Shown here: positions 816-56,916 of the stretch, one piece after another | How the letters are laid out: every line of letters begins with the position of its first letter | Numbering within the stretch: position 1 is the first letter of the stretch | IMG/VR virus record: IMGVR_UViG_3300045999_011735 | Coordinates: 50,997-114,996 of that record | DNA length: 64,000 nt | Direction: 5' to 3' (one strand) | Origin: a virus | Program-made: the position numbers and the translations under genes | Notes under the pieces: model-generated | Told to the model about the DNA's origin: nothing | The model's database searches: none | What the model saw: only the letters and a program-made list of their open reading frames with translations

Positions 816-1141
816 TATTGAACATTTCTAAAATTACTAACTTCACCTGGATTTTGTCTCATTTCTGCAGCAACTTGAGCCAGCATGTTTTGGTAAACAT
901 TTTGTTTTTGAGCTGGTGTAGTTGGTTTGGCTTGTGGCGCTCCTTGCATTCCCATTTGATCCATCAAACTTTGACGGAAAGCAGCAGGGTTAACATTTTT
1001 AGTAGTTAAATTAACTGTAGGCCATTCCTCAGTAGCAGCTAATGATTCCTGGATTTTTTGTTTGCCGATATTGGCTAGTTCTTCTTTCAAAACTTCCCTA
1101 ACGGCTTCTTTAATTAGATTTTTTAAGTCTTGTGTTTTCAT
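815..1141 (-). CDS. hypothetical protein (LKNLIKEAVREVLKEE N-terminus)
   Basis: ORF coupled to neighbour; ATATTTAT just upstream. Confidence 0.75.
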   Translation of the reverse strand: MKTQDLKNLIKEAVREVLKEELANIGKQKIQESLAATEEWPTVNLTTKNVNPAAFRQSLMDQMGMQGAPQAKPTTPAQKQNVYQNMLAQVAAEMRQNPGEVSNFRNVQ

Positions 1142-1152
1142 ATCAATAAATA

Positions 1153-2460
1153 TTAAGCTTCGAGATTTCGTTCGTCGATTTGGAGTTTTAAATCTTCAAT
1201 TAAAACATCAGAATTTAATGTAAATGATGGTTGTGTACGTAATACGATAAATCCACTTCTATCTAAAGCAACAGCATATCTACGTTTATTTCCATCTACT
1301 ACAAATTTAGGATCATTTTCTTCATATATTGCAAAAGTAAATCCTTTATATGAAACATTAGGTACTGCACCTAATTGACCACCACCTTCTAACTGTGCTA
1401 CTAATGCATTAATTTCATTTGGTGATAAGTCATTGTCAATTGCTTTATCAATAATATCGCTAATTGGTAATAATCTTGATTTTTGGTATTGTACTTCAAT
1501 TACTAATCCATTTAATGCTTCTCTAGTAATTCCTAACATTACTGTTATAGAATCTAATGTCATTATAGCATCTGTTATTTTTTTAACAGTACCCGGAGTT
1601 GCTGGGGTAGGGATTAATAATAGTATTCTAACAACTATAGAAATAATTCTTAATATTCTTTCTAAAGTTCTAATTGTATTTCTAATTTTAGTAATTTGAC
1701 GTTCAGCTTTATTTAATTCAACTAAAGCAGCATTTCGTACTACCCTTGCTCTTAATACATCCTGTTTAGTTTGAATATTTAAAATTTGTTCGTTTACTCT
1801 ATCAACTAAATCAGTTAATTGCTGTACTATTTTAGCTAATCGCTGAACTTCTCTATTCAATAATTTAGATATGATAAATAGAGCTGCGGCTTTAGCTAAT
1901 GATCTAATTGCTGAACTATTTTTCTTTGCAATTGCTCTAGCATCATTTATTTTAATTTTTTTAACATCTTGTTTAACAATAGTATCACTTTTCCTTTCAG
2001 ATGCTTCTACTGTTTGTTTTAATTCTCTTTTCCTAAATATATTTCCTACTCTTCTTGTAAGATCATCTACTTTAGTTTGAACAGCTTCTAAAAATTTAGT
2101 AAGTTGTTGAACTTCTTTTTCTGCTTTTTTCTTTTTTTCCTCTGCAACTTTTAACTTTTTATCGGCTTCATTTGATAAATTTTGTCTTATTTGTTCTGAA
2201 TTTGCTCCTGGTTGGTTAGCTTGTTGGTTGAATGTTGCTGGGTCTGGAGCAAGAGTAGCAGCAGCAGCTAAAGCAGCATCAGCAGATAATTGTTTGTTAC
2301 TTAAAGTACCAGCATATGATTTAGCTTGTATAGCAGCTGCTTTAGCTTGTTCATATAGTGCTTTAGCATTTTCATACCTACGTCTTCCCTCTTCGTATAG
2401 TTTACGATTTTCCTCTATCTCTTTTTGAGTATTTTCTATCCTTTCATCAATAGTAGCCAT
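1153..2460 (-). CDS. long coiled-coil protein, probably structural
   Basis: 435 aa helical, Ala/Lys/Glu-rich; in the baseplate block. Confidence 0.6.
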   Translation of the reverse strand: MATIDERIENTQKEIEENRKLYEEGRRRYENAKALYEQAKAAAIQAKSYAGTLSNKQLSADAALAAAATLAPDPATFNQQANQPGANSEQIRQNLSNEADKKLKVAEEKKKKAEKEVQQLTKFLEAVQTKVDDLTRRVGNIFRKRELKQTVEASERKSDTIVKQDVKKIKINDARAIAKKNSSAIRSLAKAAALFIISKLLNREVQRLAKIVQQLTDLVDRVNEQILNIQTKQDVLRARVVRNAALVELNKAERQITKIRNTIRTLERILRIISIVVRILLLIPTPATPGTVKKITDAIMTLDSITVMLGITREALNGLVIEVQYQKSRLLPISDIIDKAIDNDLSPNEINALVAQLEGGGQLGAVPNVSYKGFTFAIYEENDPKFVVDGNKRRYAVALDRSGFIVLRTQPSFTLNSDVLIEDLKLQIDERNLEA

Positions 2461-3668
2461 TATAAGGTCTTTACAGTTTTAGAAAGTAAATTATCTTTAT
2501 TTAACTTTTTAGTATTATTACTAAGATATGTTTGTAATTTTTCGGCAGCTAAAGCTATATCCATAATAGTTATACCTTCAGGAGTAGCCTTAGCATCAAT
2601 TATATCAGTGCTAAAATCACTTAATGCCTTATATAATCCAGATAAAAGTTGTCTTAAATTATTTCCTAAAACAACAGGTTGAAGTTTATTAAATGAAGTA
2701 TCTATTGATGGTCCTAAAGCAATAATATTATCTTGTATAGTTATTCCTGTTTTATCACTTTGCATATAAACAGGACCTTGAGAATATAATTCAACACCTG
2801 TTCTACCAAATACTAATACTTCATCTGATTTAGAAGAAATAATAGTTCTATCAGCATTTATAATTGCTTGAGGATTTGAATAGGAAGATATACCAATAGG
2901 TTCAGTAATATTACTTAAACGTACGTTACCTATATTTAAAGGAACAATTTGTTGAGATGTTAAGTAAAATGAAGATCCATCTTGGTTAATATTTTCAACG
3001 TATAAATCAGAACCTGAAGGTTTAAATCCATGTTCATTTGAAAGAATAAGAATAGGATTACTATTTAATTCTCCTGGGTTGGTAGACCATGGTGTTAAAT
3101 CTTTATCTCCTGATCTATTTGTACTTCCAAAACGAAGTGAATTTCCAAATCGACCTTCTAAAACATAGTCACCTTCAAATGTTTGTACTCCTCTAAAATC
3201 AGAATTTTGTGTAAATGAATTATATAATAAATCTTTATTTTCATTAATAAATAATCCGTTAAATTGAGGGCTATTCCATGCATTAATTACACTTAAGTAA
3301 TAAGTTTCTTCTGTTTTATTTGTAATAGGAGAAGGTGCTGATGGTAAATCCATCAACAATACTATTTCACCTGGTAATGGGAAATACTTTTGGTTTGGAT
3401 ATAAAGGTAAAGCAGTAGGTAACGTAGCAAGAGTAGCATCATTCAACTGATCCAAAGGAATTTCAGTTGATTCATCATATATTTGATACAATATAGTTCC
3501 TACACCAGCCCAACCACCATTAGCATCCCATACTTTTTCAGGGACACTAGTTGGGCCTAATATAACAGCATAAACCTTTCCTGTCTTAAATTGAAAAGGA
3601 GGCAAAAAGTTATTATTACCAATAGAGGTAGTAATAAACGATAGACCTTCTCTTATTCTAGTACTCAT
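2460..3668 (-). CDS. baseplate hub/central spike (gp5/VgrG-like)
   Basis: N-terminal OB-like PLPGEIVLL, EGDYVLEGRFGNSLRFG, C-terminal beta repeats and QPVVLG. Confidence 0.7.
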   Translation of the reverse strand: MSTRIREGLSFITTSIGNNNFLPPFQFKTGKVYAVILGPTSVPEKVWDANGGWAGVGTILYQIYDESTEIPLDQLNDATLATLPTALPLYPNQKYFPLPGEIVLLMDLPSAPSPITNKTEETYYLSVINAWNSPQFNGLFINENKDLLYNSFTQNSDFRGVQTFEGDYVLEGRFGNSLRFGSTNRSGDKDLTPWSTNPGELNSNPILILSNEHGFKPSGSDLYVENINQDGSSFYLTSQQIVPLNIGNVRLSNITEPIGISSYSNPQAIINADRTIISSKSDEVLVFGRTGVELYSQGPVYMQSDKTGITIQDNIIALGPSIDTSFNKLQPVVLGNNLRQLLSGLYKALSDFSTDIIDAKATPEGITIMDIALAAEKLQTYLSNNTKKLNKDNLLSKTVKTL

Positions 3669-4866: not shown

Positions 4867-5128
4867 TTAATTCGCTTTGTAATGTTTTTACACTCTCAAA
4901 GAACCAACCAATTTCATCATCAGAATGAAACGTACCTTTAGCATCTATATCTTCCAAACGTCTATTAGTATTATTTACAGCATTAGAAAAAAGGGCAATA
5001 TATTGATCTTGTGAATCAACAATTTTTTCCAACTTTTCTACTTTTTTAAATAAATTATAAGACACATATCCCGAAATAGAAGCCAAAGCCGATAAAATAA
5101 TAATTGTTATAATCATAATTAGTTCCAT
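4820..5128 (-). CDS. membrane-anchored coiled-coil protein
   Basis: N-terminal hydrophobic helix followed by coiled coil. Confidence 0.65.
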   Translation of the reverse strand: MELIMIITIIILSALASISGYVSYNLFKKVEKLEKIVDSQDQYIALFSNAVNNTNRRLEDIDAKGTFHSDDEIGWFFESVKTLQSELNDFNINKKRGQQPNQ

Positions 5129-12881: not shown

Positions 12882-12979
12882 TAGTCAGGACAGGATTCGA
12901 ACCTGTAAATCTTTTCCTTGTGTACTCTAACAATTAAGAGTGTATAAGGTTTTTACGTCTAACATTCCGCCACCTGACT
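12882..12979 (-). ncRNA. tRNA-like element without a canonical anticodon arm
   Basis: Acceptor AGTCAGG/CCTGACT, D arm TGGCGGAATGTTAGACG, T arm ACAGG-TTCGAAT-CCTGT; centre is a long irregular hairpin. Confidence 0.8.
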
Positions 12980-22884: not shown

Positions 22885-23535
22885 TTACAGGTTGAATGCT
22901 TCAATTGTTTCTTTAAATGGATTACCTTCTATTTGCTTAACTAAATCGAGCATATCTTGAGCTAGTTGTCTTACTTCAACTTGAGCATGCTCGCTATTTC
23001 TTAATTGTTGGAAATGATAAAACGAACGCCAGTTAAACATTACATCCATTGTAATTTGACTATTGAATGTTTTAAAGAAGCGAGCTGATTCCTTAGCACG
23101 TTTACGGCCTAATACTGGTGTTAGATCTTCTAAACACTTGTGGTATAATTGATTGCCATACCTAGTATATTCATCTAATATATCAGCCCAATTTTTTCTT
23201 TGTAGATGTTCCATACTGCAAGGAATATCAGGCCAATCATTAGGAATATAGTATTTATCTTCTTTCAATTCCTTATAACGAGCGCTCTCACCATTAACTG
23301 AAACACCAATACGATGTTTAATTAAATGGATATGAGTTGCTTGATCCACTGTTACTAGAAAATGTAATGATGATTTTTCAAATGGTGTATGATGTCCTTC
23401 ACTTGCTAACATTTTAAGTAGCTTACCTACCCTAGCTTTCTTCTCATCAGTAATATCTCTAGATGTTGATGTCCAAGCTGATTGGGCATGTATTAGATCT
23501 GAACCGTAATGTCCTAATAATTCTACTTTATTCAT
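22885..23535 (-). CDS. thyX: flavin-dependent thymidylate synthase
   Basis: GHHTPFE, KHRIGVSVNGESARY, NWRSFYHF..LR..HAQVEVR. Confidence 0.93.
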   Translation of the reverse strand: MNKVELLGHYGSDLIHAQSAWTSTSRDITDEKKARVGKLLKMLASEGHHTPFEKSSLHFLVTVDQATHIHLIKHRIGVSVNGESARYKELKEDKYYIPNDWPDIPCSMEHLQRKNWADILDEYTRYGNQLYHKCLEDLTPVLGRKRAKESARFFKTFNSQITMDVMFNWRSFYHFQQLRNSEHAQVEVRQLAQDMLDLVKQIEGNPFKETIEAFNL

Positions 23536-25984: not shown

Positions 25985-26097
25985 TGGTTGCGGAGAGAGG
26001 ACTTGAACCTCCACGCTGCTCAAAGCAGCAGACGCTTGTTTCGCGCCTCATGTCTACCATCGGTAGTCGTACGCCTACTCGCTTTCACCACTCCGCA
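25985..26097 (-). ncRNA. aberrant tRNA-like RNA with encoded CCA
   Basis: TGCGGAG/CTCCGCA-ACCA acceptor, T arm, long variable arm, about 23-nt D-loop insertion, loop GAAACAA without U33. Confidence 0.8.
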
Positions 26098-26111: not shown

Positions 26112-26197
26112 TACCTGAGGCCGGAGTCGAACCGGCACGGGCATTTCTGCCCAAGAGATTTTAAGTCTCTCTTGTCTACCTATTTCAACACTCAGGT
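26112..26197 (-). tRNA. tRNA-Leu(TAA)
   Basis: AGAGA-CTTAAAA-TCTCT anticodon arm, long variable arm. Confidence 0.93.
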
Positions 26198-27013: not shown

Positions 27014-27090
27014 CTTTTTTCGTTTTTGTTAAAAAATTTAAGCGACCATAAATATATGGTTACTTATTTGGGTTTCCAAATTTAATTTAG

Positions 27091-27474
27091 TGGAGGAGAC
27101 GGGAATCGAACCCGTGTATCCATAAGGAACAATAACACCAGCGTATCACATGCTTAGATCTGCAAGCTGATCAGTAATTGGGGACGCTAGTTTTGGTTAG
27201 CGTGCCTACCACCACCTAATTTTATGAAACTAGGAAAACTAGAGCTATAATACTGAGACTATAGCGGGGTTGCTGTTCTGTTGCAAGGCTATCAGCTGCC
27301 CCTTGCGGATTAGGCTGCTACAGCGTAATCGGCACCTACGAACGCCATTAAGTCGTCGAAGGTCATTGTTGACATTTCGTCATTTATTGGTTGAAAATTT
27401 GTTTAAAGACGACATATCCAAACGTCTGCATGTAGTGGTACCTTCACATTACGGAGCAATACCTGGACTCCCCC
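27091..27474 (-). ncRNA. ssrA: tmRNA
   Basis: 5' GGGGGAG pairs with CTCCTCC-A (G3:U70), T arm ACGGG-TTCGATT-CCCGT, internal tag ORF ending YAVAA*. Confidence 0.93.
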
Positions 27475-30462: not shown

Positions 30463-31395
30463 CTATTTTCGTATAAATATTAAATCTTGTTCAAATGATT
30501 CTAATGATTCTACATTAACTTTAACATTTCCTAACTCAAACATACCGATTTCGTTATTTTCTGCAACAATATCATTCAGTTGTGTTAAAAATGTGTAATC
30601 TTGTTGAGTAAAGGTATTAACATCTATTTCAACAACCACATTTGCTTCTTCAAGAGGAGATGTAAAGAATAAGTCTAATGCTTTAGTTAGGTCAGGAGTA
30701 GCATTACCTATAATAACATAAGCCTTTTTATATACCTTATTATATTTGGATATCCTAAAACCCCACTTTTTAATAAAGGCTAAGTTAGACATCATTTCGA
30801 TTTCTTGATAGTTATCTGATCTTGATGTTTTGCTCACAAAGTGATATACCATAGCTGCATTTGCTACTTTACATTCAAACCCAGCTAATTTATATCTTAA
30901 ATGCACATCATCATCTTCACAGAATTTTTTAAAGGTATATCCATCTATGTCAAGATAATCTTCTTTATAAACGGCAAAGAATAGTTGTGAACCACCATCA
31001 ATCAAAACATCATCTACAGTATATTGAAAGAATTTGTTTTTATCGTAATTTTCAATTCCACGACCACAATCAAATATAGATTTGCCTGGATATTCGTCTG
31101 TGTAAATTGGTGGTTCTACTCGATGATAAACTAATACCATTTTGCGTTTAATATGCTTTAAAATAGTTTCCACAAATCCAGGATGTGGCACCATATCATT
31201 ATGCATCAATACTACTACTTCACCTTTTGCTTTAGCTACAGCATTGTTAAAATTAATTCCTAAAGTCACATCATCATTTACTTCAACTACAATTTCAACT
31301 TCATTTTCATCAGGATATAACTCTCTGATTTGTTGAACCGCAAAGTCAGTATAATGTTGATTAGATGTGGTTGCTGGTATTATTAGTGATATCAT
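30463..31395 (-). CDS. glycosyltransferase family 2
   Basis: ISLIIP, HND, CEDDDVHLR, VYHFVS. Confidence 0.85.
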   Translation of the reverse strand: MISLIIPATTSNQHYTDFAVQQIRELYPDENEVEIVVEVNDDVTLGINFNNAVAKAKGEVVVLMHNDMVPHPGFVETILKHIKRKMVLVYHRVEPPIYTDEYPGKSIFDCGRGIENYDKNKFFQYTVDDVLIDGGSQLFFAVYKEDYLDIDGYTFKKFCEDDDVHLRYKLAGFECKVANAAMVYHFVSKTSRSDNYQEIEMMSNLAFIKKWGFRISKYNKVYKKAYVIIGNATPDLTKALDLFFTSPLEEANVVVEIDVNTFTQQDYTFLTQLNDIVAENNEIGMFELGNVKVNVESLESFEQDLIFIRK

Positions 31396-32254
31396 ATATC
31401 ATTCTGTTTTTAATTGATGGTATTGGTTTTACAAAATCATTATTATCAAATTGTGGCATTGCTCCCCATTTATTTAAAAATTTCTTTGCATTTTTATATT
31501 CATTAAGTCTTTGTCTTTCAGAAGATTGTCCATTGTTTTCTTCTAAACGATGTGAACCTCTACCTGCAAAATGCCAAATTACAGATTTAGTTGTTTGAAC
31601 AAATCCAAACCCTTCATTTTGCATTCTAATAAATAAGTCCATGTCTTCCCAAGATGTTGGAGCAAATAAGGCATCATTGCCTCCAATATAGTCCCAATCT
31701 TCTTTTCTAATTATAAACCCACCTGCACCTTCACATCTTCTTATTTGAATATCATTCAAGCTACTAAATTCTCTTGAAAATTCCAAAAATGCATTTTCAT
31801 TAAAATCATCATGATATGCCCCAATTGCATCTACAGGAAAGAATATATTACCTGGTTTTTGAGGTGGATTGTTAAATATGTTTGGTTGTATTCTCCAAGA
31901 CGATATGGCATATTTACTGTCATATTTTCTTATTTCATTTAATAATACTAAATCAAACTCTTCAGCAACATAAAAGTCAGATTGTAAAAATATAATATAT
32001 TCTGTTTTTACCTTACTAGCACAGAAGTTCATCCCACCACCTATTCCTCTAGCCGGTTCAAAATGTGGTTCAATATATATTTCTAGATTGTATTGATCTT
32101 TAACTTCTTCAAGCCATTCGTTTGTTCCATCAGTACAGTTTTCTGCATGTATTATAAATGGAGCATCTTTAAAATAGGCATTTTGTCTTACTGATTTGAT
32201 GCTCCATTTTAAATATTCTAGATTATTGTATGTTGAAATTGTAAATGTAATCAT
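31361..32254 (-). CDS. glycosyltransferase family 2
   Basis: TYNN, CTDGT, WEDMDLFIR. Confidence 0.9.
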   Translation of the reverse strand: MITFTISTYNNLEYLKWSIKSVRQNAYFKDAPFIIHAENCTDGTNEWLEEVKDQYNLEIYIEPHFEPARGIGGGMNFCASKVKTEYIIFLQSDFYVAEEFDLVLLNEIRKYDSKYAISSWRIQPNIFNNPPQKPGNIFFPVDAIGAYHDDFNENAFLEFSREFSSLNDIQIRRCEGAGGFIIRKEDWDYIGGNDALFAPTSWEDMDLFIRMQNEGFGFVQTTKSVIWHFAGRGSHRLEENNGQSSERQRLNEYKNAKKFLNKWGAMPQFDNNDFVKPIPSIKNRMIYDITNNTSNHI

Positions 32255-40921: not shown

Positions 40922-42223
40922 TTATTGTTCTATCTTTTTAAGTTTAGGCAACTTAAGTTCAACTTGTTTTGGAAATTCAGGAGTATACTTTTTAAGTAAT
41001 TCGTCTAACACCTCAACCATTTTGTCAAATGAGAAATTTTGTTTATTTCTGTATGCGAGGCGTTTTGCTTTTTCTTGATATTCTTTATAGTTGGTAAATA
41101 CATCCATTAAAGCATGTCCTGATTGGTTATCATCAGGTTTGAACCACATTGATTCAGCCAATATTGTATTAGCAACAGCCGCACTTGGGTGTACTTGATT
41201 TAATGTACCTCCTACTAAGCCACAGAGTTCAGAATTTAAGAAATCTAAATGCCCACTCCATCCACTAGCAATAATTGGTTTTCCAATAACACTAAATTCA
41301 AGTAACGGGCGTCCAAATCCTTCACCTTTAGTAAAGGACACCATTGCTTTTACTTTTGGGTGGTTGTATATGCAATTTACTTCATCATCACTCAAATCAC
41401 CATGGATTAAGTAGATATTAGGTATATCTTTTGAATTTACTGTTTTTCTAATATCATCTATCTTCTTCAAAATATTGTCTCTATCTATAATTGAAGGAGC
41501 ACCTTGTGATACTTTTAAAATTAGTCCTGGTTTGTTTTTCTTTCCTTTAAATACTTCAAGGAATGCTTTAATCATGTATCCAACATTCTTTCTATCTTCA
41601 GCATAGTCACCTTGCAACCAGTGCCCTACAAATAAGTAACAGAATTCTTCTTTAATTGTATTTAAATCATCATAAATGTCAAAATCAACAATATCGTCCG
41701 ATTTAAAATATTTATTTAAATCAGCACCTTCAAATAATATTTCAAGTGGTTTTTTTAATTCAATTACGTTTACTAATTGACCATTTGGTGCTTTCTGTTC
41801 AAATTTACTACTTTGAAATACTTTTTTAGAATGATCAGATGATACTAAATTTAGAGTCATTCTATTACAACCTTCAATCCAACTAGGATCGCATGTTGTA
41901 GTTTCAATACCTGCTGTAACACCAATATTGAATTTACCTAATGGTTGAAATTCATTTGGTACTGTAATTTGGATCCATACTTCAGGTTGTTTAGGAACAC
42001 TCATTGTTAGTTTTCCAATGATTCTATTTTTCAAATCTTCTTCTTCAGCAATGTTTGTATCTAAAGCACCGAATGGTGTTTGTCCCCATCTTTGAGATAA
42101 TATTTTAATATCCCATTCTTCACCTTTAATTTTGATAAGTGATTTTACAAAATCACGAGATCTAGCTCCGTATCCACTATACGTGTCAATAGGGCAACTT
42201 ACTATACAAAGTGGTTTACTCAT
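40922..42223 (-). CDS. glycosyltransferase family 4 (GT-B)
   Basis: SGYG, GEGFGRPLLE, GWSGHLDF. Confidence 0.9.
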   Translation of the reverse strand: MSKPLCIVSCPIDTYSGYGARSRDFVKSLIKIKGEEWDIKILSQRWGQTPFGALDTNIAEEEDLKNRIIGKLTMSVPKQPEVWIQITVPNEFQPLGKFNIGVTAGIETTTCDPSWIEGCNRMTLNLVSSDHSKKVFQSSKFEQKAPNGQLVNVIELKKPLEILFEGADLNKYFKSDDIVDFDIYDDLNTIKEEFCYLFVGHWLQGDYAEDRKNVGYMIKAFLEVFKGKKNKPGLILKVSQGAPSIIDRDNILKKIDDIRKTVNSKDIPNIYLIHGDLSDDEVNCIYNHPKVKAMVSFTKGEGFGRPLLEFSVIGKPIIASGWSGHLDFLNSELCGLVGGTLNQVHPSAAVANTILAESMWFKPDDNQSGHALMDVFTNYKEYQEKAKRLAYRNKQNFSFDKMVEVLDELLKKYTPEFPKQVELKLPKLKKIEQ

Positions 42224-43662
42224 AACGAAATTACAGTTTTATTTTGTTTTGCAGGTAATTCTTCAATTTTTATAAAATTATAACATTCTCTAGGCTCCCA
42301 TTTTTCAAGAGTTTTATCAATATATTTGATAACATTTTTAGCCATATTTTTAGATGTCATCATTGCTTCATCTGATGTAACCCATTTACGAGCGGCTTCT
42401 CCTCTACGTTTACGTTCATCAGAACTTAATTCATATAGTGCTTTTATTTGAGCAGCTGCATCTCTAAAATCAGCTCTATCATCAAAGATATAAGGTGTTG
42501 GGACTGAACCTACAAGAGATAAATTTGATGGAAATACTGGGAAGGCCCATTCACCACATTTTTTATATTTTCCAAAATGGTTTGATCCAAATTCTTCAGT
42601 GAATTTAATCCATTCACCATTTTCATCTTCAAAGCGCATTTGGTCTTGCATACCACCAGTTACGTTGGCAATGATTGGTTTTCCACACATCATAGCTTCA
42701 GTTAAACTTAATCCCCATCCTTCATTCGATGAAATCAAAATACAAGCATCCATTGAATTGTATAGTAAATTCATTTGTTCAGGAACAAATCTATTTAATC
42801 CTGTAATTAATACATTTGGAGGATTTTTACCCCAAATCATTTCAATTACAGCAGGAATATCTGTTCCGTTTTCATCTACAGGGTGTGTATGAGCTATAAA
42901 TGCTACTTTATCTTTTTTATCTTCTGGAAGTTGGTCTACAAATAATTTCCAAGCTAATAGTACATCTGGGAATGATTTGCGTCTAATGTTTCTAGAGTTA
43001 AATCCTAAAACAAAGTCAAATTCTTTTTTTCCAAATATGTTCTTTTTAAACTCTTCAAGTTCTTTTCCTTTATCTGTTCCTTCCTGAATAGGGAAGAATA
43101 CATCTTCATTTATACCATGAGGCACATATCCTATTACTTTGTCTTTGGCTTTATCACCTAACACAGCATGATTTAAGTTTTCAGTCTGTTTAGAAATAGC
43201 TAATAAACCATCACATGATTCGTAATATGGTCTGTTGTAAAGTGGATAAGGCAATGAATCCCAAATGTTCAAATAAATAATTGGAACTTGAGAACGTATC
43301 TCTCTTTCATGCATCCACAACCAAATCCAATAACGTGGATCTGTAAACAACATGATTGCGTCTGGTTTTTCAACTTCAAGTAATGCTCTAATGGCTTCAA
43401 TAGTTCCATATCCAGAACTAGGGTATAATGTTACTTGAGCATCTTCAATTCCATTAAATTTATTTGCATCTGCACTTAAATCTAATTTTTTACCTTCGTC
43501 TGGGTGTTTGATTGTACTACCTAAATTTATCCAATTGTAGTAATGGCAGGTACCTAAAATCATTTCCCTTGCCATAGTTGCAATACCAGAAGTTGTTCTG
43601 ATATCATCTGATAATAGTAAAATCTTTTTACGTTGTGCTTGTGGAATGTAACCTTCTTTCAT
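42220..43662 (-). CDS. glycosyltransferase family 4 (GT-B)
   Basis: RNIRRK, NEGWGLSLTEAMMCG. Confidence 0.9.
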   Translation of the reverse strand: MKEGYIPQAQRKKILLLSDDIRTTSGIATMAREMILGTCHYYNWINLGSTIKHPDEGKKLDLSADANKFNGIEDAQVTLYPSSGYGTIEAIRALLEVEKPDAIMLFTDPRYWIWLWMHEREIRSQVPIIYLNIWDSLPYPLYNRPYYESCDGLLAISKQTENLNHAVLGDKAKDKVIGYVPHGINEDVFFPIQEGTDKGKELEEFKKNIFGKKEFDFVLGFNSRNIRRKSFPDVLLAWKLFVDQLPEDKKDKVAFIAHTHPVDENGTDIPAVIEMIWGKNPPNVLITGLNRFVPEQMNLLYNSMDACILISSNEGWGLSLTEAMMCGKPIIANVTGGMQDQMRFEDENGEWIKFTEEFGSNHFGKYKKCGEWAFPVFPSNLSLVGSVPTPYIFDDRADFRDAAAQIKALYELSSDERKRRGEAARKWVTSDEAMMTSKNMAKNVIKYIDKTLEKWEPRECYNFIKIEELPAKQNKTVISL

Positions 43663-45766: not shown

Positions 45767-46678
45767 TTATTTTATTTTTAGTATCTGTGATATAAACGCC
45801 ATGAAGTTAATTTCTTTATCGGCAATACTGTTATTTTGCCATAAATATTGGGCTGAATGGATTGCTATATCGGCAGGTGCATTTGAATATTCAGTTACAC
45901 GTTCGTATAAACCGGTAAATAATGGTACATAATCATTTATGTCTGCGTCTGCTATTGTTTGTCTGATATCAGTCCATGCTGTTTTGCTCTTTGATTTTAG
46001 GTGCTTTATAACGTCATTTAAAACACCTTCAACATTAGCAACTAATGCTCCTGGATTTAAATTATTACTGTCATCTACTGATTGTTGAGATGCATTAATA
46101 ATTTTTCTAATGTCAGGATAATATGTTTTAACTAGAGCAGCAATGTCTGTTAATTCATATTTTACTTTTTCTTGATCTAAAAGCCAAGCTAAATGTTTTG
46201 CAACATCGCCTTTAGCAGGTGGTTCAATATGAAATGTTTGGCATCTGCTCTTAAGTGGATCAATAATACGTTCAGCATAGTTAGCTGTAAGTATAAATCG
46301 TGTTTTTGCAGAATATGTTTCCATTACATTACGCAATGCGGCTTGTGCTTGAGCAGTAATATAATCGGCTTCATCCAATATTACTACTTTAAGTGGATTA
46401 AAACTATTTACAGAGGCAAAATCAACGATTTTATCTCTAATAGTGTCAATACCTCTTTCATCAGATGCGTTAATATACATTATATCACACTTGATATTTT
46501 TAGTAATTAACTTAGCTAATGTTGTTTTACCTGTACCAGGTTTTCCAAATAGCAGTAAATGAGGAATATCATTTGTAGTGATACATTTAGAAATGAAGGC
46601 TTTTACACCCTCATTTCCAACGTATGTATCTAGTGTTTGGCTACGATATTTCTCAACCCATAGGGAATTGTTCGCCAT
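45767..46678 (-). CDS. clamp loader AAA+ subunit (gp44/RFC-like)
   Basis: WVEKYR, GKPGTGKT, NASDERG, DEAD, SRC. Confidence 0.95.
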   Translation of the reverse strand: MANNSLWVEKYRSQTLDTYVGNEGVKAFISKCITTNDIPHLLLFGKPGTGKTTLAKLITKNIKCDIMYINASDERGIDTIRDKIVDFASVNSFNPLKVVILDEADYITAQAQAALRNVMETYSAKTRFILTANYAERIIDPLKSRCQTFHIEPPAKGDVAKHLAWLLDQEKVKYELTDIAALVKTYYPDIRKIINASQQSVDDSNNLNPGALVANVEGVLNDVIKHLKSKSKTAWTDIRQTIADADINDYVPLFTGLYERVTEYSNAPADIAIHSAQYLWQNNSIADKEINFMAFISQILKIK

Positions 46679-48284
46679 CTTTATCTTTTTTAGGTTCGTT
46701 ATAGATTACACATTCAGTCAATAATACAGTACCTGCTACTGAAATGGCATTTTCAAGTGCTGTACGAGCTACTTTCATTGGATCAATAATGCCTGCTTCA
46801 AACATATCTTGTACTGTTTCTGACTTAATGTCATATCCAAATGTACGACCATTTGTAGGGTTTTCCTCTCTAGCTTTTCTAAGGGCAAAGATAATTTCAT
46901 CTTTGTTTTCAATTCCAGCATTTGATAGGATTTTGAGGAATGGAGAACCACAAGCAACATATGCTATTTTCTTTCCTAAATTAAAGTCTTCACCATCATC
47001 TTTCTTAAGTGTGATTTTCTCTCTTGCTTCGAGTAAAGCTACACCACCACCTGGAAGCAATCCTTCTTCAAGTGCTGCTTTAGTTGCTTGTAAAGCGTCA
47101 TCAATGCGGTCTTTCTTTTCTTTCATTTCGGTTTCAGTAGCACCTCCGATATTAATCACAGCTACTCCACCTACTAGTTTTCCAAGGCGTTCTTGCAAAT
47201 GTTCTTTTTCAAATGCAGAAAGTGATTTTCCAATTTGTTCTTTAAGTTCTGCAATACGTGCTTGAACGTTTTCTTCAGAACCACTACCATCTACAATTGT
47301 AGTAGTGTCTTTAGTTACAGTTACTACTCTTGCTTTACCGAACCAGTCTGAATTAAAACGCTCTAGTTTCATTCCTTTTTCAGGTGAAATTACAGTACCA
47401 CCAGTTACAGTTGCAATATCTTCCAAAAGTGCCAAACGACGGTCTCCAAAGTCAGGAGCTTTAACAGCAACTGCCTTTAACATTCCTCTCATTTTATTTA
47501 CAATCAATGTTGATAGTGCTTCACCATCAATATCTTCTGCAATAATTAAGAGTGAACTGTCTGTTTGTGAAGTACCTTCAAGTACTGGAAGTAATTCTTT
47601 AACTGATGTTAAACGTCCATTATAAATTAAGATCAATGGATCTTTTAAAATAGCAGACATTGTACTGTTGTCTGTAGTGAAATACATTGATTTGTATCCT
47701 CTATCAAACTGAATACCTTCTACTGTTTCAAGTGATGTTTCACCTGTTTTACTTTCTTCAACAGTAACAACACCATCCATTCCTACCATATTCATAGCTT
47801 CAGCTACTAATGCTCCAATTTCTTCATCATTATTTGCTGAAATAGTAGCTACTTGCTTGATTTGGTCTTCAGAATTGATGTCACGTTTAATTTCATTTAA
47901 ACCAGCAATTACTTCTTTAGATGCTGCTTCAATACCTTTCTTTACTAAAACCACATTAGTATTAGGATTAATACTTGAGAATGATTTAGTAATTAAGGCA
48001 TTTGCAAGCACAGTTGATGTAGTTGTACCATCACCTGCTTTATCTGCAGTTTTAATAGATGCTTGCTTAATCATTTGAGCACCTATATTTTCAATTGGGT
48101 CTTCAACGTCTTTAAGCGTTTTTGCTACTGTAACACCATCTTTGGTACTACGTACAGTTCCGTATTCATCAATGAATACTACATTACGGCCATAAGGTCC
48201 GAGCGTTGAGCTAACGGCATCAGCCACTTGCTTAATACCATTAGCTAATTTTTCTTTTGCTTCTTGATTGAAAGCTGTTTTCAT
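46653..48284 (-). CDS. groEL: chaperonin GroEL
   Basis: TLGPYGRNV, GDGTTT, KAPDFGDRR, PGGG. Confidence 0.97.
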   Translation of the reverse strand: MKTAFNQEAKEKLANGIKQVADAVSSTLGPYGRNVVFIDEYGTVRSTKDGVTVAKTLKDVEDPIENIGAQMIKQASIKTADKAGDGTTTSTVLANALITKSFSSINPNTNVVLVKKGIEAASKEVIAGLNEIKRDINSEDQIKQVATISANNDEEIGALVAEAMNMVGMDGVVTVEESKTGETSLETVEGIQFDRGYKSMYFTTDNSTMSAILKDPLILIYNGRLTSVKELLPVLEGTSQTDSSLLIIAEDIDGEALSTLIVNKMRGMLKAVAVKAPDFGDRRLALLEDIATVTGGTVISPEKGMKLERFNSDWFGKARVVTVTKDTTTIVDGSGSEENVQARIAELKEQIGKSLSAFEKEHLQERLGKLVGGVAVINIGGATETEMKEKKDRIDDALQATKAALEEGLLPGGGVALLEAREKITLKKDDGEDFNLGKKIAYVACGSPFLKILSNAGIENKDEIIFALRKAREENPTNGRTFGYDIKSETVQDMFEAGIIDPMKVARTALENAISVAGTVLLTECVIYNEPKKDKDGEQFPMG

Positions 48285-52879: not shown

Positions 52880-55288
52880 TTAGTTCTCACGTCTTTCTTC
52901 TGGTTTATAATATACAATCCTGTTGTGCCAAACTGGTGCTGCTAATAATATTGCTGGTTTAATATGTCCTCTCATTGTTTCTTGGAACATATATGACATC
53001 CATGTTTGTTCAAATGGATTTGCCCATTCAGTTTCTAGGAACATTTTATAGTTACCTTTTTTGTTTACAATCATAGGCCAGTTTGCATAATATATTTCTC
53101 CGGTTGCATAAGATAATTCACCATTTACTTCAATTCTATCAAATTTAGTTCTTGGAGCGTATGGGTCTAATCCTGATACTGGTAGTTGGTCATAATCAGG
53201 CCATACAAATGTTCTTACTGATTGTGGTACATTATACCAAGATACCTGAATGTTATTGTCCATGTATACTTCAGTATATGATAATTTGAGGAAATCAAAA
53301 TCTTCCTTAGCCATTATTTCATGAATCTTCTTCCACAAGTCAGGAACGAATTTTCTAAATCCATTTCTACAATATCCTGTTTCAGTTGAAGGATAGAACC
53401 CCATATCATCTTCAAAGAATAAGTAATAGTCACTATCTGATTCTTGGAAATGTTTTGCAGCAAATAATCTTCCACCATTAATCCCTTTATTTTCGTTCAT
53501 AATGATATGTTCAAAACCATATTTGTCTGCTACTACTTTATTATCAATTCGTGCTTGTGGATCTGTAGAATTATCAATTAGTATTTTCTTATGTGGTTTT
53601 TCTAGCCAATCAGGTGAATTTGCTTTCCATGTAGCTAATGTGTGTTCAATTTGTTGAGGGAAATTAAACGTAAGCATGTACAATGATGTTTTATCTGTAG
53701 TAGCATTGTATATGCTCTTAGGCAATACATGGGCACGTTTACTATTATTTTCTAATTGTACTTGATCGTCTAATAATGCTTGTACAAACTTAACAATTAA
53801 TCCATTATCATCTAAAGCAAAACGTCTGTAAAGATGTGGTTCAAGATGTGCCATGATACTAAAGATACTTTCTTCAGTACCCATATATCCTTCATCTAAA
53901 GTACCTTGTAACAAAGCATAATAAGTACCATTTGCTTGAGTTAAGAAATCTTTATGTCCACCAAACAATCCACCTCTACAAACATATTCTACTTTTTCAC
54001 GAGCATATCTGTTAATTCCTTTAACTTCAAACCCATGAATTTCATCTACAGGCTGGTAAGGGTAACTTAAGAATAGGAATGTTTTTAAGTATGGGATAAT
54101 TTTATCTAGTGCTCTGTTTTCTGTAAAGTATTTTTCATAAACAGTATTTGTAATACCTGCATCAAGCCATAAGAAATAATTTGTATCAAATACATTCATT
54201 ACTTTAGCATCATGCAACATGAACATTTTTGATTGTACAATTGGATTGTACCATTCAAGTGCTGCTTGAGGACTACTTTTCAACCAACCATTTTCTCCTG
54301 TTTGATTAAGCCATTTTTCACTTGTTCTTATTTGTTGGGTTTTATCCCAAAACGGAGCATAAAAGTTATTTTTAATGTCGTCTAATTCAAAGTTTCTAAC
54401 GTGTGTGTTTTCAGGTTTACGTTTTTCCCAAACTAGATATTCATATTCTTTAGGAATATAAATAAACATTTTTACAGGTATATCTAGGAACTTTCTAAAG
54501 TTTTCAATATAATGACTAAAGTCTCTACCTGGTCTTCCTATGTTCCATAATCCAGTTACTAAGGTTAAATCATCAGTTGTTTCTAATGCTTTAACTGGTT
54601 CAGACATTTGTACTTGTTGTCTTAATTTATCCAACTCATAAAATGCTAATCCTTTTCTAACACCATTATCGTATCCGTCTACTTTAGGTTTTTCCTCAAT
54701 GTAAAATTCAGGTTTAGGAAAATTAAAAGGTGCTGAATGTAAGCATACAGGATAAAAAGCAGCAGCTCCTCTATCCCAATTTGCTTCTACTGTTACAGTA
54801 TTGTCTCTATTCTCATGAGTATAATTTGGATCATTTAAACTATACCAAGTAGTAGTTAAAAGATATTTACATTTTGATTTTAAAATATTTGCTATTGCTT
54901 TTTGTCCACCATCTAAAGTAAGATGTCCCAATACATCTCTTACAATCAATAAATCACCTTCAGGTATTTCAATACCGTCTTGTGTTAAGTCTAATTCTTT
55001 AAAACTAATTATTGAATTTGCAAACTTTTGGTTGTCCTGAATCATTTCAGGTACAATATCACAACCTGTATATTTTTCAAAATTGTATACAATGTCTTTC
55101 ATCCAGTTAAAGTCCCCACAAGGAACATCAACTACAGATTTTATTTCTTTGTCTTTAACTAACTGTTTGATTTGTTGCCTAATAATATCAGTTTCTTCCA
55201 TGGTGCTTCCAGGGCCACTTTTACTTTCAGGCCAACCACCAAATCTCCAGTTTGTGTAAACGTCTTGAAAAGTTTCTTTTAAACTCAT
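52880..55288 (-). CDS. fusion: SAM methyltransferase + HtrL/YibB-like GT + GT2-like domain
   Basis: SGPGS..DVPCGDFNW; LWLDAG..GGLFGG..GTEE; IDNS..FFEDDM. Confidence 0.8.
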   Translation of the reverse strand: MSLKETFQDVYTNWRFGGWPESKSGPGSTMEETDIIRQQIKQLVKDKEIKSVVDVPCGDFNWMKDIVYNFEKYTGCDIVPEMIQDNQKFANSIISFKELDLTQDGIEIPEGDLLIVRDVLGHLTLDGGQKAIANILKSKCKYLLTTTWYSLNDPNYTHENRDNTVTVEANWDRGAAAFYPVCLHSAPFNFPKPEFYIEEKPKVDGYDNGVRKGLAFYELDKLRQQVQMSEPVKALETTDDLTLVTGLWNIGRPGRDFSHYIENFRKFLDIPVKMFIYIPKEYEYLVWEKRKPENTHVRNFELDDIKNNFYAPFWDKTQQIRTSEKWLNQTGENGWLKSSPQAALEWYNPIVQSKMFMLHDAKVMNVFDTNYFLWLDAGITNTVYEKYFTENRALDKIIPYLKTFLFLSYPYQPVDEIHGFEVKGINRYAREKVEYVCRGGLFGGHKDFLTQANGTYYALLQGTLDEGYMGTEESIFSIMAHLEPHLYRRFALDDNGLIVKFVQALLDDQVQLENNSKRAHVLPKSIYNATTDKTSLYMLTFNFPQQIEHTLATWKANSPDWLEKPHKKILIDNSTDPQARIDNKVVADKYGFEHIIMNENKGINGGRLFAAKHFQESDSDYYLFFEDDMGFYPSTETGYCRNGFRKFVPDLWKKIHEIMAKEDFDFLKLSYTEVYMDNNIQVSWYNVPQSVRTFVWPDYDQLPVSGLDPYAPRTKFDRIEVNGELSYATGEIYYANWPMIVNKKGNYKMFLETEWANPFEQTWMSYMFQETMRGHIKPAILLAAPVWHNRIVYYKPEERREN

Positions 55289-56916
55289 AATTTCATGTAT
55301 TTTCTGATGTATTCGTTTTCTATAATTAATGTATCCATTTGTGTGTTTTCAAACACGTTAAATGCATCTTTTAATGTGCTAAGTATAGGCATTCTGTTTA
55401 CGTTAAATGAAGTATTTAATATAACTCCAATGCCTGTTTTTGCTTCAAACATAGTAATTAAATCGTACAACCATGGGTTTTGTTCTCTAGTTACTGTTTG
55501 AACACGAGCAGTATTGTCAACGTGTGTAATTGCTGCTAATTTTTCTCTCCATTCCTCACGTACAATTGGAGCATAAGACATCCATCTTGCATCTCTATTC
55601 CATTCAAAGTATTTATTTACATCTTCTAAACGTACAACTGGAGCAAATGGTCTATACCATTCTCTATGTTTTACTTTAGCGTTTAAGATATCTTTCATTT
55701 CTGGGAATGAAGGATTACAAATAATACTTCTATTGCCTAATGCTCTTGGTCCATGTTCACCTCTATCTCTTACAACGCCTATAATTTTACCTTCAGCTAA
55801 ATCATCAATTACTTCATCCATGTTTAATTCATCTTTCCACCATGATGATTGGTTAAAGTAGTATTGGAACATATATTTGTCCATTATAGGTAAACCAGCA
55901 TATGTAATATCTATTGGCTCTTCAGGTCTTAAAAATCCAGCCATTAAACCAACTGCTAAACCACAGTCATTAGGGTTAGGACCTACAAATACATCTTTAC
56001 CAAACTCATTTACTAAACGAGTATTTAATAAAATGTTTAATCCACATCCACCTGTAATGCCAATAGGCAAATCAGGGAATAAATCAAAATAAGGTTTTGC
56101 TATTTCTAAGAAACATTCTTCAAATGCTCTTTGTGAAGTTGCTGCTATATCCCAAGCAAGTTGTCCTTCTAATCTGTTATGTTCATCAAACGTAACACCT
56201 ATGCTTTCACCTAGTGGGATCATTTTTTCTAAGTAAGTATGTCCTTGAGGATCGCTTTTATAATATTCTTTAAAAGCATCCATCCATTCTTCTCTTACAT
56301 TACCGTATGAAACTAGACCCATTATCTTTCCAGCATATACTAAGTTTCCTTCACTTAATCCTTCAAAACTAATATCTTTTAAATAGTGTCCTATCAACAT
56401 ATAAGGAAAACCTAAGTCATAGTCAATCCAATGTTCTCCCATTGTTGGGCAAGCTAATCGTTCTAAAAGTTTTGGATGTTGTCCTCTTTGACAGTAGAAT
56501 ATATTAAATTTTCCATCATCACCTCCTCCATCAAATGAAAATACTAATGCTTCTTTATGTGGGGATTGATAAAAGGTACCAGCAGCGTGGGCCTGATGGT
56601 GATGATATGAAATATGCCTATCAGCTGGTATAACTTCATGTGTGCGTAGTAATACATTATCTACTACTAGATCGGTGTTCATTGAAATACAATGTTCAAA
56701 ATGTTCAATGCCGTATTCTTCTTTTACAAATGCAAGAATACTCTTTATAATTTCTACAAAGTCTCTATAATTTTTATGTTTTGGGCATTTATATTGAGCA
56801 AGTCCTGAGTTTTTATACCCTAAAAAGCGTTCAACTTCAATTACAGATATAATTTTTCCGTCTTGCTCAATAGCAAAAGCAGCGTTGTGGGACCCGTAGT
56901 ATGCTATATTTGCCAT
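55285..56916 (-). CDS. O-carbamoyltransferase (NodU/CmcH/TobZ family)
   Basis: HHQAHA, DGGGD, GKIMGL, GPRALGNRS, RPFAP, HVDNTARVQT, LNTSFN. Confidence 0.95.
   Translation of the reverse strand: MANIAYYGSHNAAFAIEQDGKIISVIEVERFLGYKNSGLAQYKCPKHKNYRDFVEIIKSILAFVKEEYGIEHFEHCISMNTDLVVDNVLLRTHEVIPADRHISYHHHQAHAAGTFYQSPHKEALVFSFDGGGDDGKFNIFYCQRGQHPKLLERLACPTMGEHWIDYDLGFPYMLIGHYLKDISFEGLSEGNLVYAGKIMGLVSYGNVREEWMDAFKEYYKSDPQGHTYLEKMIPLGESIGVTFDEHNRLEGQLAWDIAATSQRAFEECFLEIAKPYFDLFPDLPIGITGGCGLNILLNTRLVNEFGKDVFVGPNPNDCGLAVGLMAGFLRPEEPIDITYAGLPIMDKYMFQYYFNQSSWWKDELNMDEVIDDLAEGKIIGVVRDRGEHGPRALGNRSIICNPSFPEMKDILNAKVKHREWYRPFAPVVRLEDVNKYFEWNRDARWMSYAPIVREEWREKLAAITHVDNTARVQTVTREQNPWLYDLITMFEAKTGIGVILNTSFNVNRMPILSTLKDAFNVFENTQMDTLIIENEYIRKYMKL

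Follow-up and report, generated by a model that had tools for sequence, protein, structure and literature searches.

The minus strand of the window, the 64-kb stretch of viral DNA analysed here, carries at the end of a tRNA array a 113-nt gene whose product is probably a processed, non-decoding, and self-pairing mimic of a tRNA. We also consider it fairly probable that this element is a cut-down, re-labelled, and remodelled offshoot of a giant-armed, aspartate-type RNA that occupies the same slot in related phages.

A tRNA-like cloverleaf with an enlarged D loop

The window comprises bases 50997-114996 of a 114,996-base IMG/VR virus record that is estimated to be 67% complete. The nearest cultured relative of the record's family-B DNA polymerase is that of Microcystis phage Mel-JY01, at only 35% identity, and contigs related to the window's phage originate from freshwater metagenomes. 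ARAGORN placed six tRNAs (Leu-UAA, Arg, Met, Gln, Glu, and Pro) and a tmRNA on the strand of the element and just upstream of it (Table 1).

Table 1. Position and parts of the 113-nt element and its immediate neighbours (window coordinates).
Feature	Position	Strand	Remarks
Ordinary tRNA-Leu(UAA)	26112..26197	-	14 nt upstream of the element; final normal tRNA of the array (context)
Entire tRNA-like RNA gene, 113 nt with encoded CCA	25985..26097	-	read 26097->25985
Acceptor 5′ strand UGCGGAG (U1, G2 as in the giant-armed family)	26091..26097	-	pairs with 25989-25995
D arm: stem GUG (26086-26088)/CAU (26050-26052); loop AAA + insert + UGGUAGA, contains G18 G19	26050..26088	-	
23-nt D-loop insert	26060..26082	-	hairpin GUAG (26075-26078)/CUAC (26063-26066), 8-nt loop G-CGUACG-A (26067-26074)
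Anticodon-position arm AGGCG(C)/(G)CGUCU, loop GAAACAA (26036-26042)	26030..26048	-	no U33; 9-nt loop in L085
Short variable arm GCUGC-UUUGA-GCAGC	26015..26029	-	where relatives have a ~72-nt arm on the same GCUG/CAGC base
T arm GGAGG-UUCAAGU-CCUCU	25996..26012	-	one G.U
Acceptor 3′ strand CUCCGCA; A73 (25988); encoded CCA (25985-25987)	25985..25995	-	direct reading
P0001, 316 aa	25013..25963	-	downstream; start codon 24 nt after A73; GT-A-like glycosyltransferase model (context)

Read on the minus strand, the element forms the class II, Leu-like cloverleaf with each stem paired that the first-pass annotation had described. Direct reading gives an acceptor of seven Watson-Crick pairs (UGCGGAG/CUCCGCA) followed by U8 and G9; the D stem GUG/CAU and the stem AGGCGC/GCGUCU have one G.U pair each, with G26 between the two, and A14, A15, G18G19, A21, and a T loop of tRNA type are all present. 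RNAfold recovered the acceptor, anticodon-position, variable, and T helices. When the 64-kb window was scanned mechanically on both strands for a 7/7 acceptor closing a 5/5 T arm with the T-loop motif, the only matches were the tRNAs, the element, and a second tRNA-like RNA at 12882-12979, which argues that the element is not a chance set of hairpins. The stem annotated as AGGCGC/GCGTCT is fully paired in the window, but its sixth pair (C-G) is broken in L085, a closely related contig, so the conserved stem is one of 5 bp with the 9-nt loop C-GAAACAA-R. The loop register in the element is thus ambiguous, being either a 6-bp stem with a 7-nt loop or a 5-bp stem with a 9-nt loop.

The annotated D-loop insertion of about 23 nt is likewise present, both hairpins named for it (GTAG/CTAC and CTACC/GGTAG) can form, and 33 nt separate the two strands of the D stem, compared to about 7-11 nt in a normal D loop. 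The absence of U33 from the loop GAAACAA was also borne out, this position being A33. Comparison of the nucleotides after N73-C74 within the window confirmed that the element alone encodes CCA, since in the six tRNAs, the tmRNA, and the second odd tRNA-like RNA these two positions are followed by something other than CA. Searches of the 115-kb record for genes encoding a CCA-adding enzyme, SmpB, or a class IIb synthetase found none; processing and any charging would therefore rely on host functions or on genes in the third of the genome that the record lacks.

Compared to class II tRNA-Leu (RF00005), the element shares the 7-bp acceptor, the 3-bp D stem, the series A14 A15 ... G18 G19 ... A21, a stem-loop variable arm, the UUCRANY T loop, A73, and CCA, but it has 23 extra D-loop nucleotides and neither U33 nor a Leu anticodon. 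ARAGORN made no call on it, with or without introns allowed, and gave only noise at a relaxed threshold; the Rfam tRNA model scored it at 23.3 bits, through the acceptor and T arms only, which is below the gathering score of 29 bits. The 7-bp acceptor, 5-bp T stem, and UUCRANY T loop are those of a tRNA, whereas in place of the 7-nt loop with U33 and a purine at position 37 of a decoding tRNA, the element has GAAACAA with A33, or the 9-nt loop on a 5-bp stem seen in L085. Decoding by the element is very unlikely, given that no register supplies U33, that the register itself is ambiguous, and that the D loop spans 33 nt.

The D-loop insert contains a self-complementary core

A 16-mer of the insert, taken whole, is an imperfect palindrome that contains the self-complementary CGUACG. 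The insert alone folds at −5.8 kcal/mol, the CGUACG self-duplex at −6.4 to −9.0 kcal/mol, and the 16-mer self-duplex at −16.6 kcal/mol. RNAfold picks the hairpin CUACC/GGUAG in this region of the element. The relatives argue for GUAG/CUAC, since G18G19 then stay unpaired and CGUACG is presented in the loop, and the CUACC/GGUAG hairpin, which is not conserved in the giant-armed family, was set aside. The insert appears to be homologous to the palindromic D-loop site of that family (for example, AGCGUACGCA in L087), and its core GCGUACG is common to L087, L172, and L174. In the window the palindrome is mounted on a new 4-bp stem, GUAG/CUAC, with G-CGUACG-A as the 8-nt loop; such a 4-bp stem with a purine-flanked 6-nt palindrome in its loop has the layout of a kissing or dimerisation hairpin.

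A longer tRNA-like RNA occupies the same slot in related phages

We compared the loci around homologs of the downstream protein P0001 (40-94% identity). Three metagenome contigs with a 94%-identical P0001 protein (L083-L085) have the same 113-nt element. In L002, L086, L087, and L088, where the P0001 homolog is 62-67% identical, the slot holds a tRNA-like RNA of 155-159 nt that follows tRNA-Leu(UAA), with 22-24 nt between its N73 and the start codon of the P0001 homolog, compared to 24 nt in the window. The loci of the homologs P0003-P0007 (76-85% identity) might hold forms intermediate between the long and the short RNA. The long RNA of this clade starts with UG and has U8-G9, the GUG D stem, and AAAG as in the element, then a self-complementary insert and GGCAKA; its 3′ part consists of a 5-bp stem, the loop UCGUCUC, a variable arm of ~72 nt on GCUG/CAGC, a GGAGG-type T arm, and G73. 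Five of the seven acceptor pairs differ on both sides between the element and L002/L087 with pairing kept, which indicates that the element kept evolving as a helix.

Among the short-form copies, the element is 97.3-98.2% identical to L083-L085, compared to 100% for tRNA-Leu, 96-97% for tRNA-Arg, 91.3% for P0001 DNA, and 83.7% for the Arg-Leu spacer, while both spacers flanking the element are 100% conserved. Three substitutions account for the differences: a U-to-C that converts a stem G.U into G-C, a change in the variable-arm loop, and the G-to-A of L085 that opens the sixth pair. This pattern fits constraint in what is a small and closely related sample, and recent shared ancestry could account for part of the high identity. 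The earlier claim that the gene is kept by selection rather than decaying freely thus finds support in its identity relative to the adjacent gene and the Arg-Leu spacer and in the gain of a G-C pair. Strong covariation is seen in the long family, whereas the short form is known from four near-identical copies (the window and L083-L085). Scans for further short-form copies gave 0 matches with an exact 19-mer and at least 118 chance matches with an exact 14-mer, with a tRNA frame in none among the matches listed, and blastn of the short form against cultured phages returned only T-arm fragments of tRNA-Leu.

The long RNA belongs to an uncatalogued giant-armed family

A single loop-region word found 65 viral contigs, and each of these 65, chosen by loop pattern, carries exactly one copy scoring 117-181 bits with a covariance model (R1) built from 44 distinct sequences. 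Nine more distinct variants were found with a variable-arm word that is blind to the loop, and the family is present in more than 70 viral contigs in addition to Bacteroidota genomes. In the family fold 97.5% of cells are paired, compared to 40-50% with the partners slid; both sides are changed in 19 of 38 pairs, and none of 500 shuffles reached the observed values. The giant-armed family is real and its fold is strongly supported. No Rfam family matched the long RNA, blastn against cultured phage records found no copy of it, and a full-text literature search found no description of the family, which is uncatalogued.

Without exception, the 60 distinct phage sequences have G at N73 and GUC at positions 34-36, the latter also in copies retrieved with no use of the loop. 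Position 33 holds C or A and, in rare cases, U; U predominates at position 37 and C at position 38; G10 and G2-C71 are nearly constant, and U1-A72 is a family mark. The variable arm of ~72 nt (42-100 nt over all copies) contains the invariant GGGUUGACCAC. Family copies keep only C74, an encoded CCA not being a family trait. The strong determinants of aspartate identity are G73, G34, U35, C36, and C38, with G2-C71 a minor one in bacteria (PMC9976931).

The phage RNAs are always co-oriented inside tRNA/tmRNA arrays, often 5-12 nt from the neighbouring tRNA. In at least 37 of 68 loci, nucleotide 1 of the RNA is preceded by 0-6 nt by the stop codon of a gene for a conserved 66-93-aa protein with two transmembrane segments (examples are L218:2754-2981(+), L188:5093-5311(+), and L087:2102-2326(+), with about 40 other loci). 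This protein has a charged tail, is holin-like in shape, and matched no family in Pfam or PHROG. In L086 and L087 its stop codon UAG forms nucleotides 3-5 of the RNA acceptor stem, so RNase P cleavage would strip the stop codon from the mRNA of the membrane protein in phages that have their own tmRNA.

Phage copies have two self-complementary sites

Two hypervariable sites are seen in the phage copies. At the D-loop site, about 26 of 41 distinct inserts are perfect palindromes of 8-12 nt, with at least 15 different words (for example, GUAGCUAC, GCGUACGC, GGAUAUAUCC, UGUGCACA, and ACUCUAGAGU); the other inserts are imperfect palindromes or plain non-palindromic hairpins, and two copies have no insert. 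At the other site, which lies close to the tip of the variable arm, 51 of 51 sequences have a perfect palindrome, with 11 different words among them. Two more variants require G.U pairs to be palindromic, which indicates RNA rather than DNA pairing. As hairpins the palindrome words have ~0 kcal/mol, compared to −10 to −16 kcal/mol as self-duplexes. Since the central nucleotides of a palindrome cannot pair within one chain, covariation from palindrome to palindrome marks intermolecular kissing of the symmetric kind, a signature published for OLE and GOLLD (PMC12286853). Together, these results suggest that the phage family self-associates by RNA-RNA pairing.

Bacterial copies are tRNA-like and lie next to an AsnC-type regulator

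A bacterial scan with the phage loop word gave no match; the variable-arm word together with model R1 later found bacterial copies at 69-103 bits in Chitinophaga, Pedobacter, Cytophagaceae, Cyclobacteriaceae, Saprospiraceae, Persicitalea, Flavisolibacter, and others. In these copies U33 is present (loops CUGUCUC or UUGUCUC), the D loop is normal, no palindromes are obvious, and GUC and G73 are kept. An AsnC-type regulator gene lies divergently 120-222 nt upstream of the RNA in 10 of 13 loci (for example, L463:2441-2908(-) with the RNA at 3130-3271(+), and L492:4309-4773(-) with the RNA at 4956-5102(+)). The asnC-asnA pair of Escherichia coli has the same divergent layout, with asnA in the position of the bacterial RNA, and U1-A72 is the mark by which GatCAB picks Asp-tRNA(Asn). 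The regulator layout and U1-A72 lead us to propose that the bacterial RNAs are probably off-ribosome carriers of Asp/Asn. The phage copies appear to be derived forms in which U33 was lost and palindromes were added and, given that the family occurs in Bacteroidota genomes, the host of the window's phage clade is probably a Bacteroidota bacterium.

Pedobacter terrae has two tandem copies of the bacterial RNA, 80 nt apart (L460:917-1061(-) and 1141-1254(-)). The second copy, of 114 nt, has a short variable arm without GGGUUGACCAC and keeps GUC and G73, indicating that short-armed paralogs arise naturally.

Relation of the element to the giant-armed family

The element shares with the family its slot, co-orientation in a tRNA array, U1-A72, G2-C71, the GUG D stem, a Leu-type core, a D loop with AAAG and a self-complementary insert with the GCGUACG core, the GCUG/CAGC base of the variable arm, and the T arm. 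It differs in having a 15-nt hairpin instead of the ~72-nt arm with GGGUUGACCAC and the second palindrome, the loop GAAACAA instead of N-N-GUC-N-N (positions 34-36 being AAC, or AAA), A73 instead of G73, and an encoded CCA, and it has no small membrane-protein gene upstream. Model R1 gave the element 36.9 bits, compared to 32.5 bits for the adjacent tRNA-Leu(UAA) and 117-181 bits for members. In the strict sense the element is not a member of the family and, as its score is barely above that of tRNA-Leu, descent from the family is argued from synteny and the D-loop insert and not from the score. The 115-kb record contains neither a long form of the RNA nor a homolog of the two-transmembrane protein, and no donor for the replaced middle region of the element was found among about 560 fetched loci. 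The first-pass annotation had missed this relation, in which the element appears as a remodelled offshoot of a large family and its insert as the self-complementary site of that family.

Proposed mode of action and alternatives

In the reading that we favour, the element would be transcribed together with the minus-strand tRNA array, and its intact acceptor/T-arm helix would allow release by RNase P and 3′ trimming, like a tRNA, with CCA already encoded. It would fold into an L shape with the 23-nt insert hairpin projecting from the variable part of the D loop, and the self-complementary CGUACG in the hairpin loop could pair two copies loop to loop. Lack of U33, a 9-nt or displaced loop, and an oversized D loop place it outside decoding. 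Two roles would be the most likely: as a stable tRNA mimic, the RNA may occupy a tRNA-binding factor of the host, be it a synthetase, an enzyme for processing or modification, or a defence nuclease directed at tRNAs; as a punctuation signal, it may define the 5′ end of the downstream mRNA. The position of the gene on the same strand, 14 nt after tRNA-Leu, and the N73-C74 shared by its neighbours are consistent with this reading. Against it stand the loss of parts that are invariant in the family (GGGUUGACCAC with the big arm, GUC, and G73), the derivation of dimerisation from sequence only, the plain hairpins at the D-loop site of some family members and the lack of this site in two others, and the competing hairpin CUACC/GGUAG, which would sequester G18G19.

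The element may be charged, as A73 and the Leu-type core fit LeuRS. The main determinants of E. coli LeuRS are A73 and an intact D/T core, and minimal Leu substrates without anticodon and variable arms are still charged; the valine determinants are A35, C36, and A73 (PMC9976931). In the 6-bp register, positions 35-38 of the element (ACAA) are those of tRNA-Val in related loci, and a valine identity may be taken as a register-dependent lead. The joint change from G73 and GUC to A73 and NAC is suggestive of an identity switch. A bolder proposal, which we regard as speculative and on balance doubtful, is that the phage branch of the RNA family assembles into dimers or chains made of RNA only, by way of two symmetric self-pairing sites on a chargeable tRNA frame, and that the window copy would be an identity-switched (G73+GUC to A73+NAC), single-site, dimerising version that captures a different host synthetase or a tRNA-directed defence enzyme. 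If true, this would be a natural and evolvable 'tRNA decoy platform'.

The main rival to the tRNA-mimic reading is a decaying relic, in which both the partner gene for the small membrane protein and the functional big arm were lost from the lineage, and the RNA was disabled so recently that damage has not yet accumulated. The disappearance of the family invariants GUC, G73, and GGGUUGACCAC would agree with such a history, as would the lack of a two-transmembrane protein homolog in the 115-kb record (in at least 37 of 68 related loci the RNA follows such a gene) and the restriction of the short form to one narrow clade among the loci and scans examined. However, all helices of the element are intact, including the five acceptor pairs in which both sides differ from those of its cousins; its conservation exceeds that of the adjacent coding gene and spacers (Arg-Leu) and is on par with that of true tRNAs, and one of its substitutions restores a Watson-Crick pair. 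Constructive changes are also seen in the gain of CCA and the re-mounting of the palindrome on a new 4-bp stem, and in Pedobacter a short-armed second copy exists beside a full one. We consider the relic unlikely. Much less likely still is a decoding tRNA, whether for valine (AAC) or phenylalanine (AAA) or as a quadruplet or frameshift reader whose loop is expanded, perhaps following excision of the D-loop insert. The full cloverleaf, the encoded CCA, and the loop positions 35-38 shared with tRNA-Val(UAC) of related loci are features that such a tRNA would have; a normal Leu-type D loop would remain once the 23 nt were removed, and the 9-nt loop of L085 recalls frameshift suppressors. These features are outweighed by the absence of U33 in every register, the ambiguity of the register, the 33-nt D loop, and rejection by tRNA finders, and the phage parent family is itself unlike a decoder (C33/A33, U37). 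To our knowledge, bacteria have no splicing mechanism for a 23-nt D-loop insert.

The two other alternatives involve the neighbouring gene. It had been proposed that the element, preceding an HtrL-like gene, could donate an aminoacyl group for non-ribosomal chemistry by the neighbouring protein. P0001 had no match in Pfam, and its predicted structure (pLDDT 91) best matches the GT-A nucleotide-sugar glycosyltransferases XXYLT1, GT6, ArnC, and GtrB, with no Fem/GNAT, L/F-transferase, or cyclodipeptide-synthase fold among the structural matches listed; P0001 thus models as a GT-A-like glycosyltransferase, which leaves the aminoacyl-donor idea tied to it unsupported. In most related phages the homologous RNA is flanked by tRNAs and not adjacent to a P0001 homolog, and hundreds of contigs have a P0001 homolog but no RNA. 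Despite the 24-nt adjacency, the encoded CCA, and the bacterial parents of the family being probably off-ribosome amino-acid carriers, we regard the donor role as extremely improbable. Somewhat less remote, though still distinctly unlikely as the whole explanation, is that the element acts in cis as tRNA punctuation, with RNase P and 3′ trimming producing a short A/U-rich 5′ leader of the glycosyltransferase mRNA and the RNA being a by-product. The distance of 22-24 nt from N73 to the start codon is kept in the window, L002, and L086-L088 despite 62-67% protein identity, the flanking spacers are fully conserved in L083-L085, and the long form also abuts open reading frames in relatives, where 0-6 nt separate the upstream stop codon of the two-transmembrane gene from nucleotide 1. 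Yet any tRNA would serve this purpose, so that the D-loop hairpin, the palindromes, and the conserved loop are left unexplained, and family members are mostly flanked by tRNAs rather than by a P0001 homolog. Punctuation is compatible with the tRNA-mimic reading and does not exclude it: no terminator-like site was found on the element's strand between it and its neighbours, and together with the constant 22-24-nt distance this makes a secondary role as a processing signal plausible.

Comparison with known systems

Small stable RNAs of unknown function in tRNA clusters have been known for decades. The species 1 and 2 RNAs of phage T4 (rnaC and rnaD) resemble the element in being small stable RNAs at the end of a phage tRNA cluster, and rnaC ends in a tRNA-type T arm, but their architecture is different, without a cloverleaf bearing a D-loop hairpin; blastn of the element against phage records including T4 gave no T4 match. 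The T arm at the end of T4 rnaC (L163:2909-3047(-)) is perfect (CCGGG-UUCGAAU-CCCGG), and this RNA folds far better than shuffles (z = −4.6). Symmetric kissing-loop RNAs such as the HIV-1 dimerisation initiation site are another parallel; in the window copy there is one self-pairing site of one sequence type, compared to two sites in the long-form cousins. The homo-oligomers OLE, GOLLD, and ROOL (PMC12286853) are similar to the parent family in that a short self-complementary word varies between relatives and stays a palindrome, and GOLLD and ROOL are also phage-borne and near tRNA islands; the element is much smaller and tRNA-framed, and its oligomerisation is proposed on sequence grounds.

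A further parallel is with aminoacylatable or non-proteinogenic tRNAs, namely the plant-virus TLS-Val, the Staphylococcus cell-wall tRNA-Gly, and the tRNA-Asn cofactor of AspRS and GatCAB, in which a tRNA frame keeps its synthetase identity marks and is kept off decoding. Unlike these, the element no longer has the Asp marks that characterise its family, and its identity is ambiguous between Leu and Val. We know of only scattered cases of non-decoding tRNA-shaped RNAs (T4 species 1 and 2, Y-RNA-like RNAs, and plant-virus 3′ ends). The present case would be one of a phage lineage re-engineering a tRNA-shaped RNA, with the processing handle (the acceptor/T helix) and the self-pairing D-loop site kept, the parts read by synthetases swapped, and the 72-nt domain discarded. 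The element and its family offer a testable system for the role of tRNA mimics in Bacteroidota infection and a small, tractable candidate for natural RNA-RNA self-assembly, and they warn that a whole class of genes in tRNA arrays is missed by standard tRNA finders and Rfam.

Other unusual RNAs and genes of the phage

The tmRNA of the window (27088-27474(-)) encodes an unusually long tag, DEMSTMTFDDLMAFVGADYAVAA, that is conserved throughout the phage clade with variant ends ...GADYALAA or ...GADEYAYAA; the 115-kb record has no SmpB gene. The second aberrant tRNA-like gene (12882-12979(-)) scores 36.3 bits on Rfam tRNA and is called by ARAGORN as Lys(CUU) with a 9-nt intron. It has the acceptor AGUCAGG/CCUGACU, a canonical Leu D arm, the T arm ACAGG-UUCGAAU-CCUGU, and A73, with an extended hairpin in place of the anticodon/variable region. 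The same frame with unrelated inserts of 30-90 nt is found at L004:2027-2134, at L253:1409-1512, and in three places in L286, and resembles a natural 'tRNA scaffold' whose cargo can be swapped. In the closest relatives the tRNA array differs from that of the window, and L083:878-975(+) is a 98-nt gene with the acceptor of the window tRNA-Met (UGACCCU/AGGGUCA), G73, and ~25 extra nucleotides around the anticodon/variable region, which may be another expanded tRNA-like RNA.

The phage also has genes for a GroEL-type chaperonin, ThyX, and several glycosyltransferases (46653-48284, 22885-23535, 30463-32254, and 40922-43662, all on the minus strand), and a carbamoyltransferase gene at 55285-56916. 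The glycosyltransferase genes, together with GT-A-like P0001 and the carbamoyltransferase, suggest extensive sugar chemistry in this phage.
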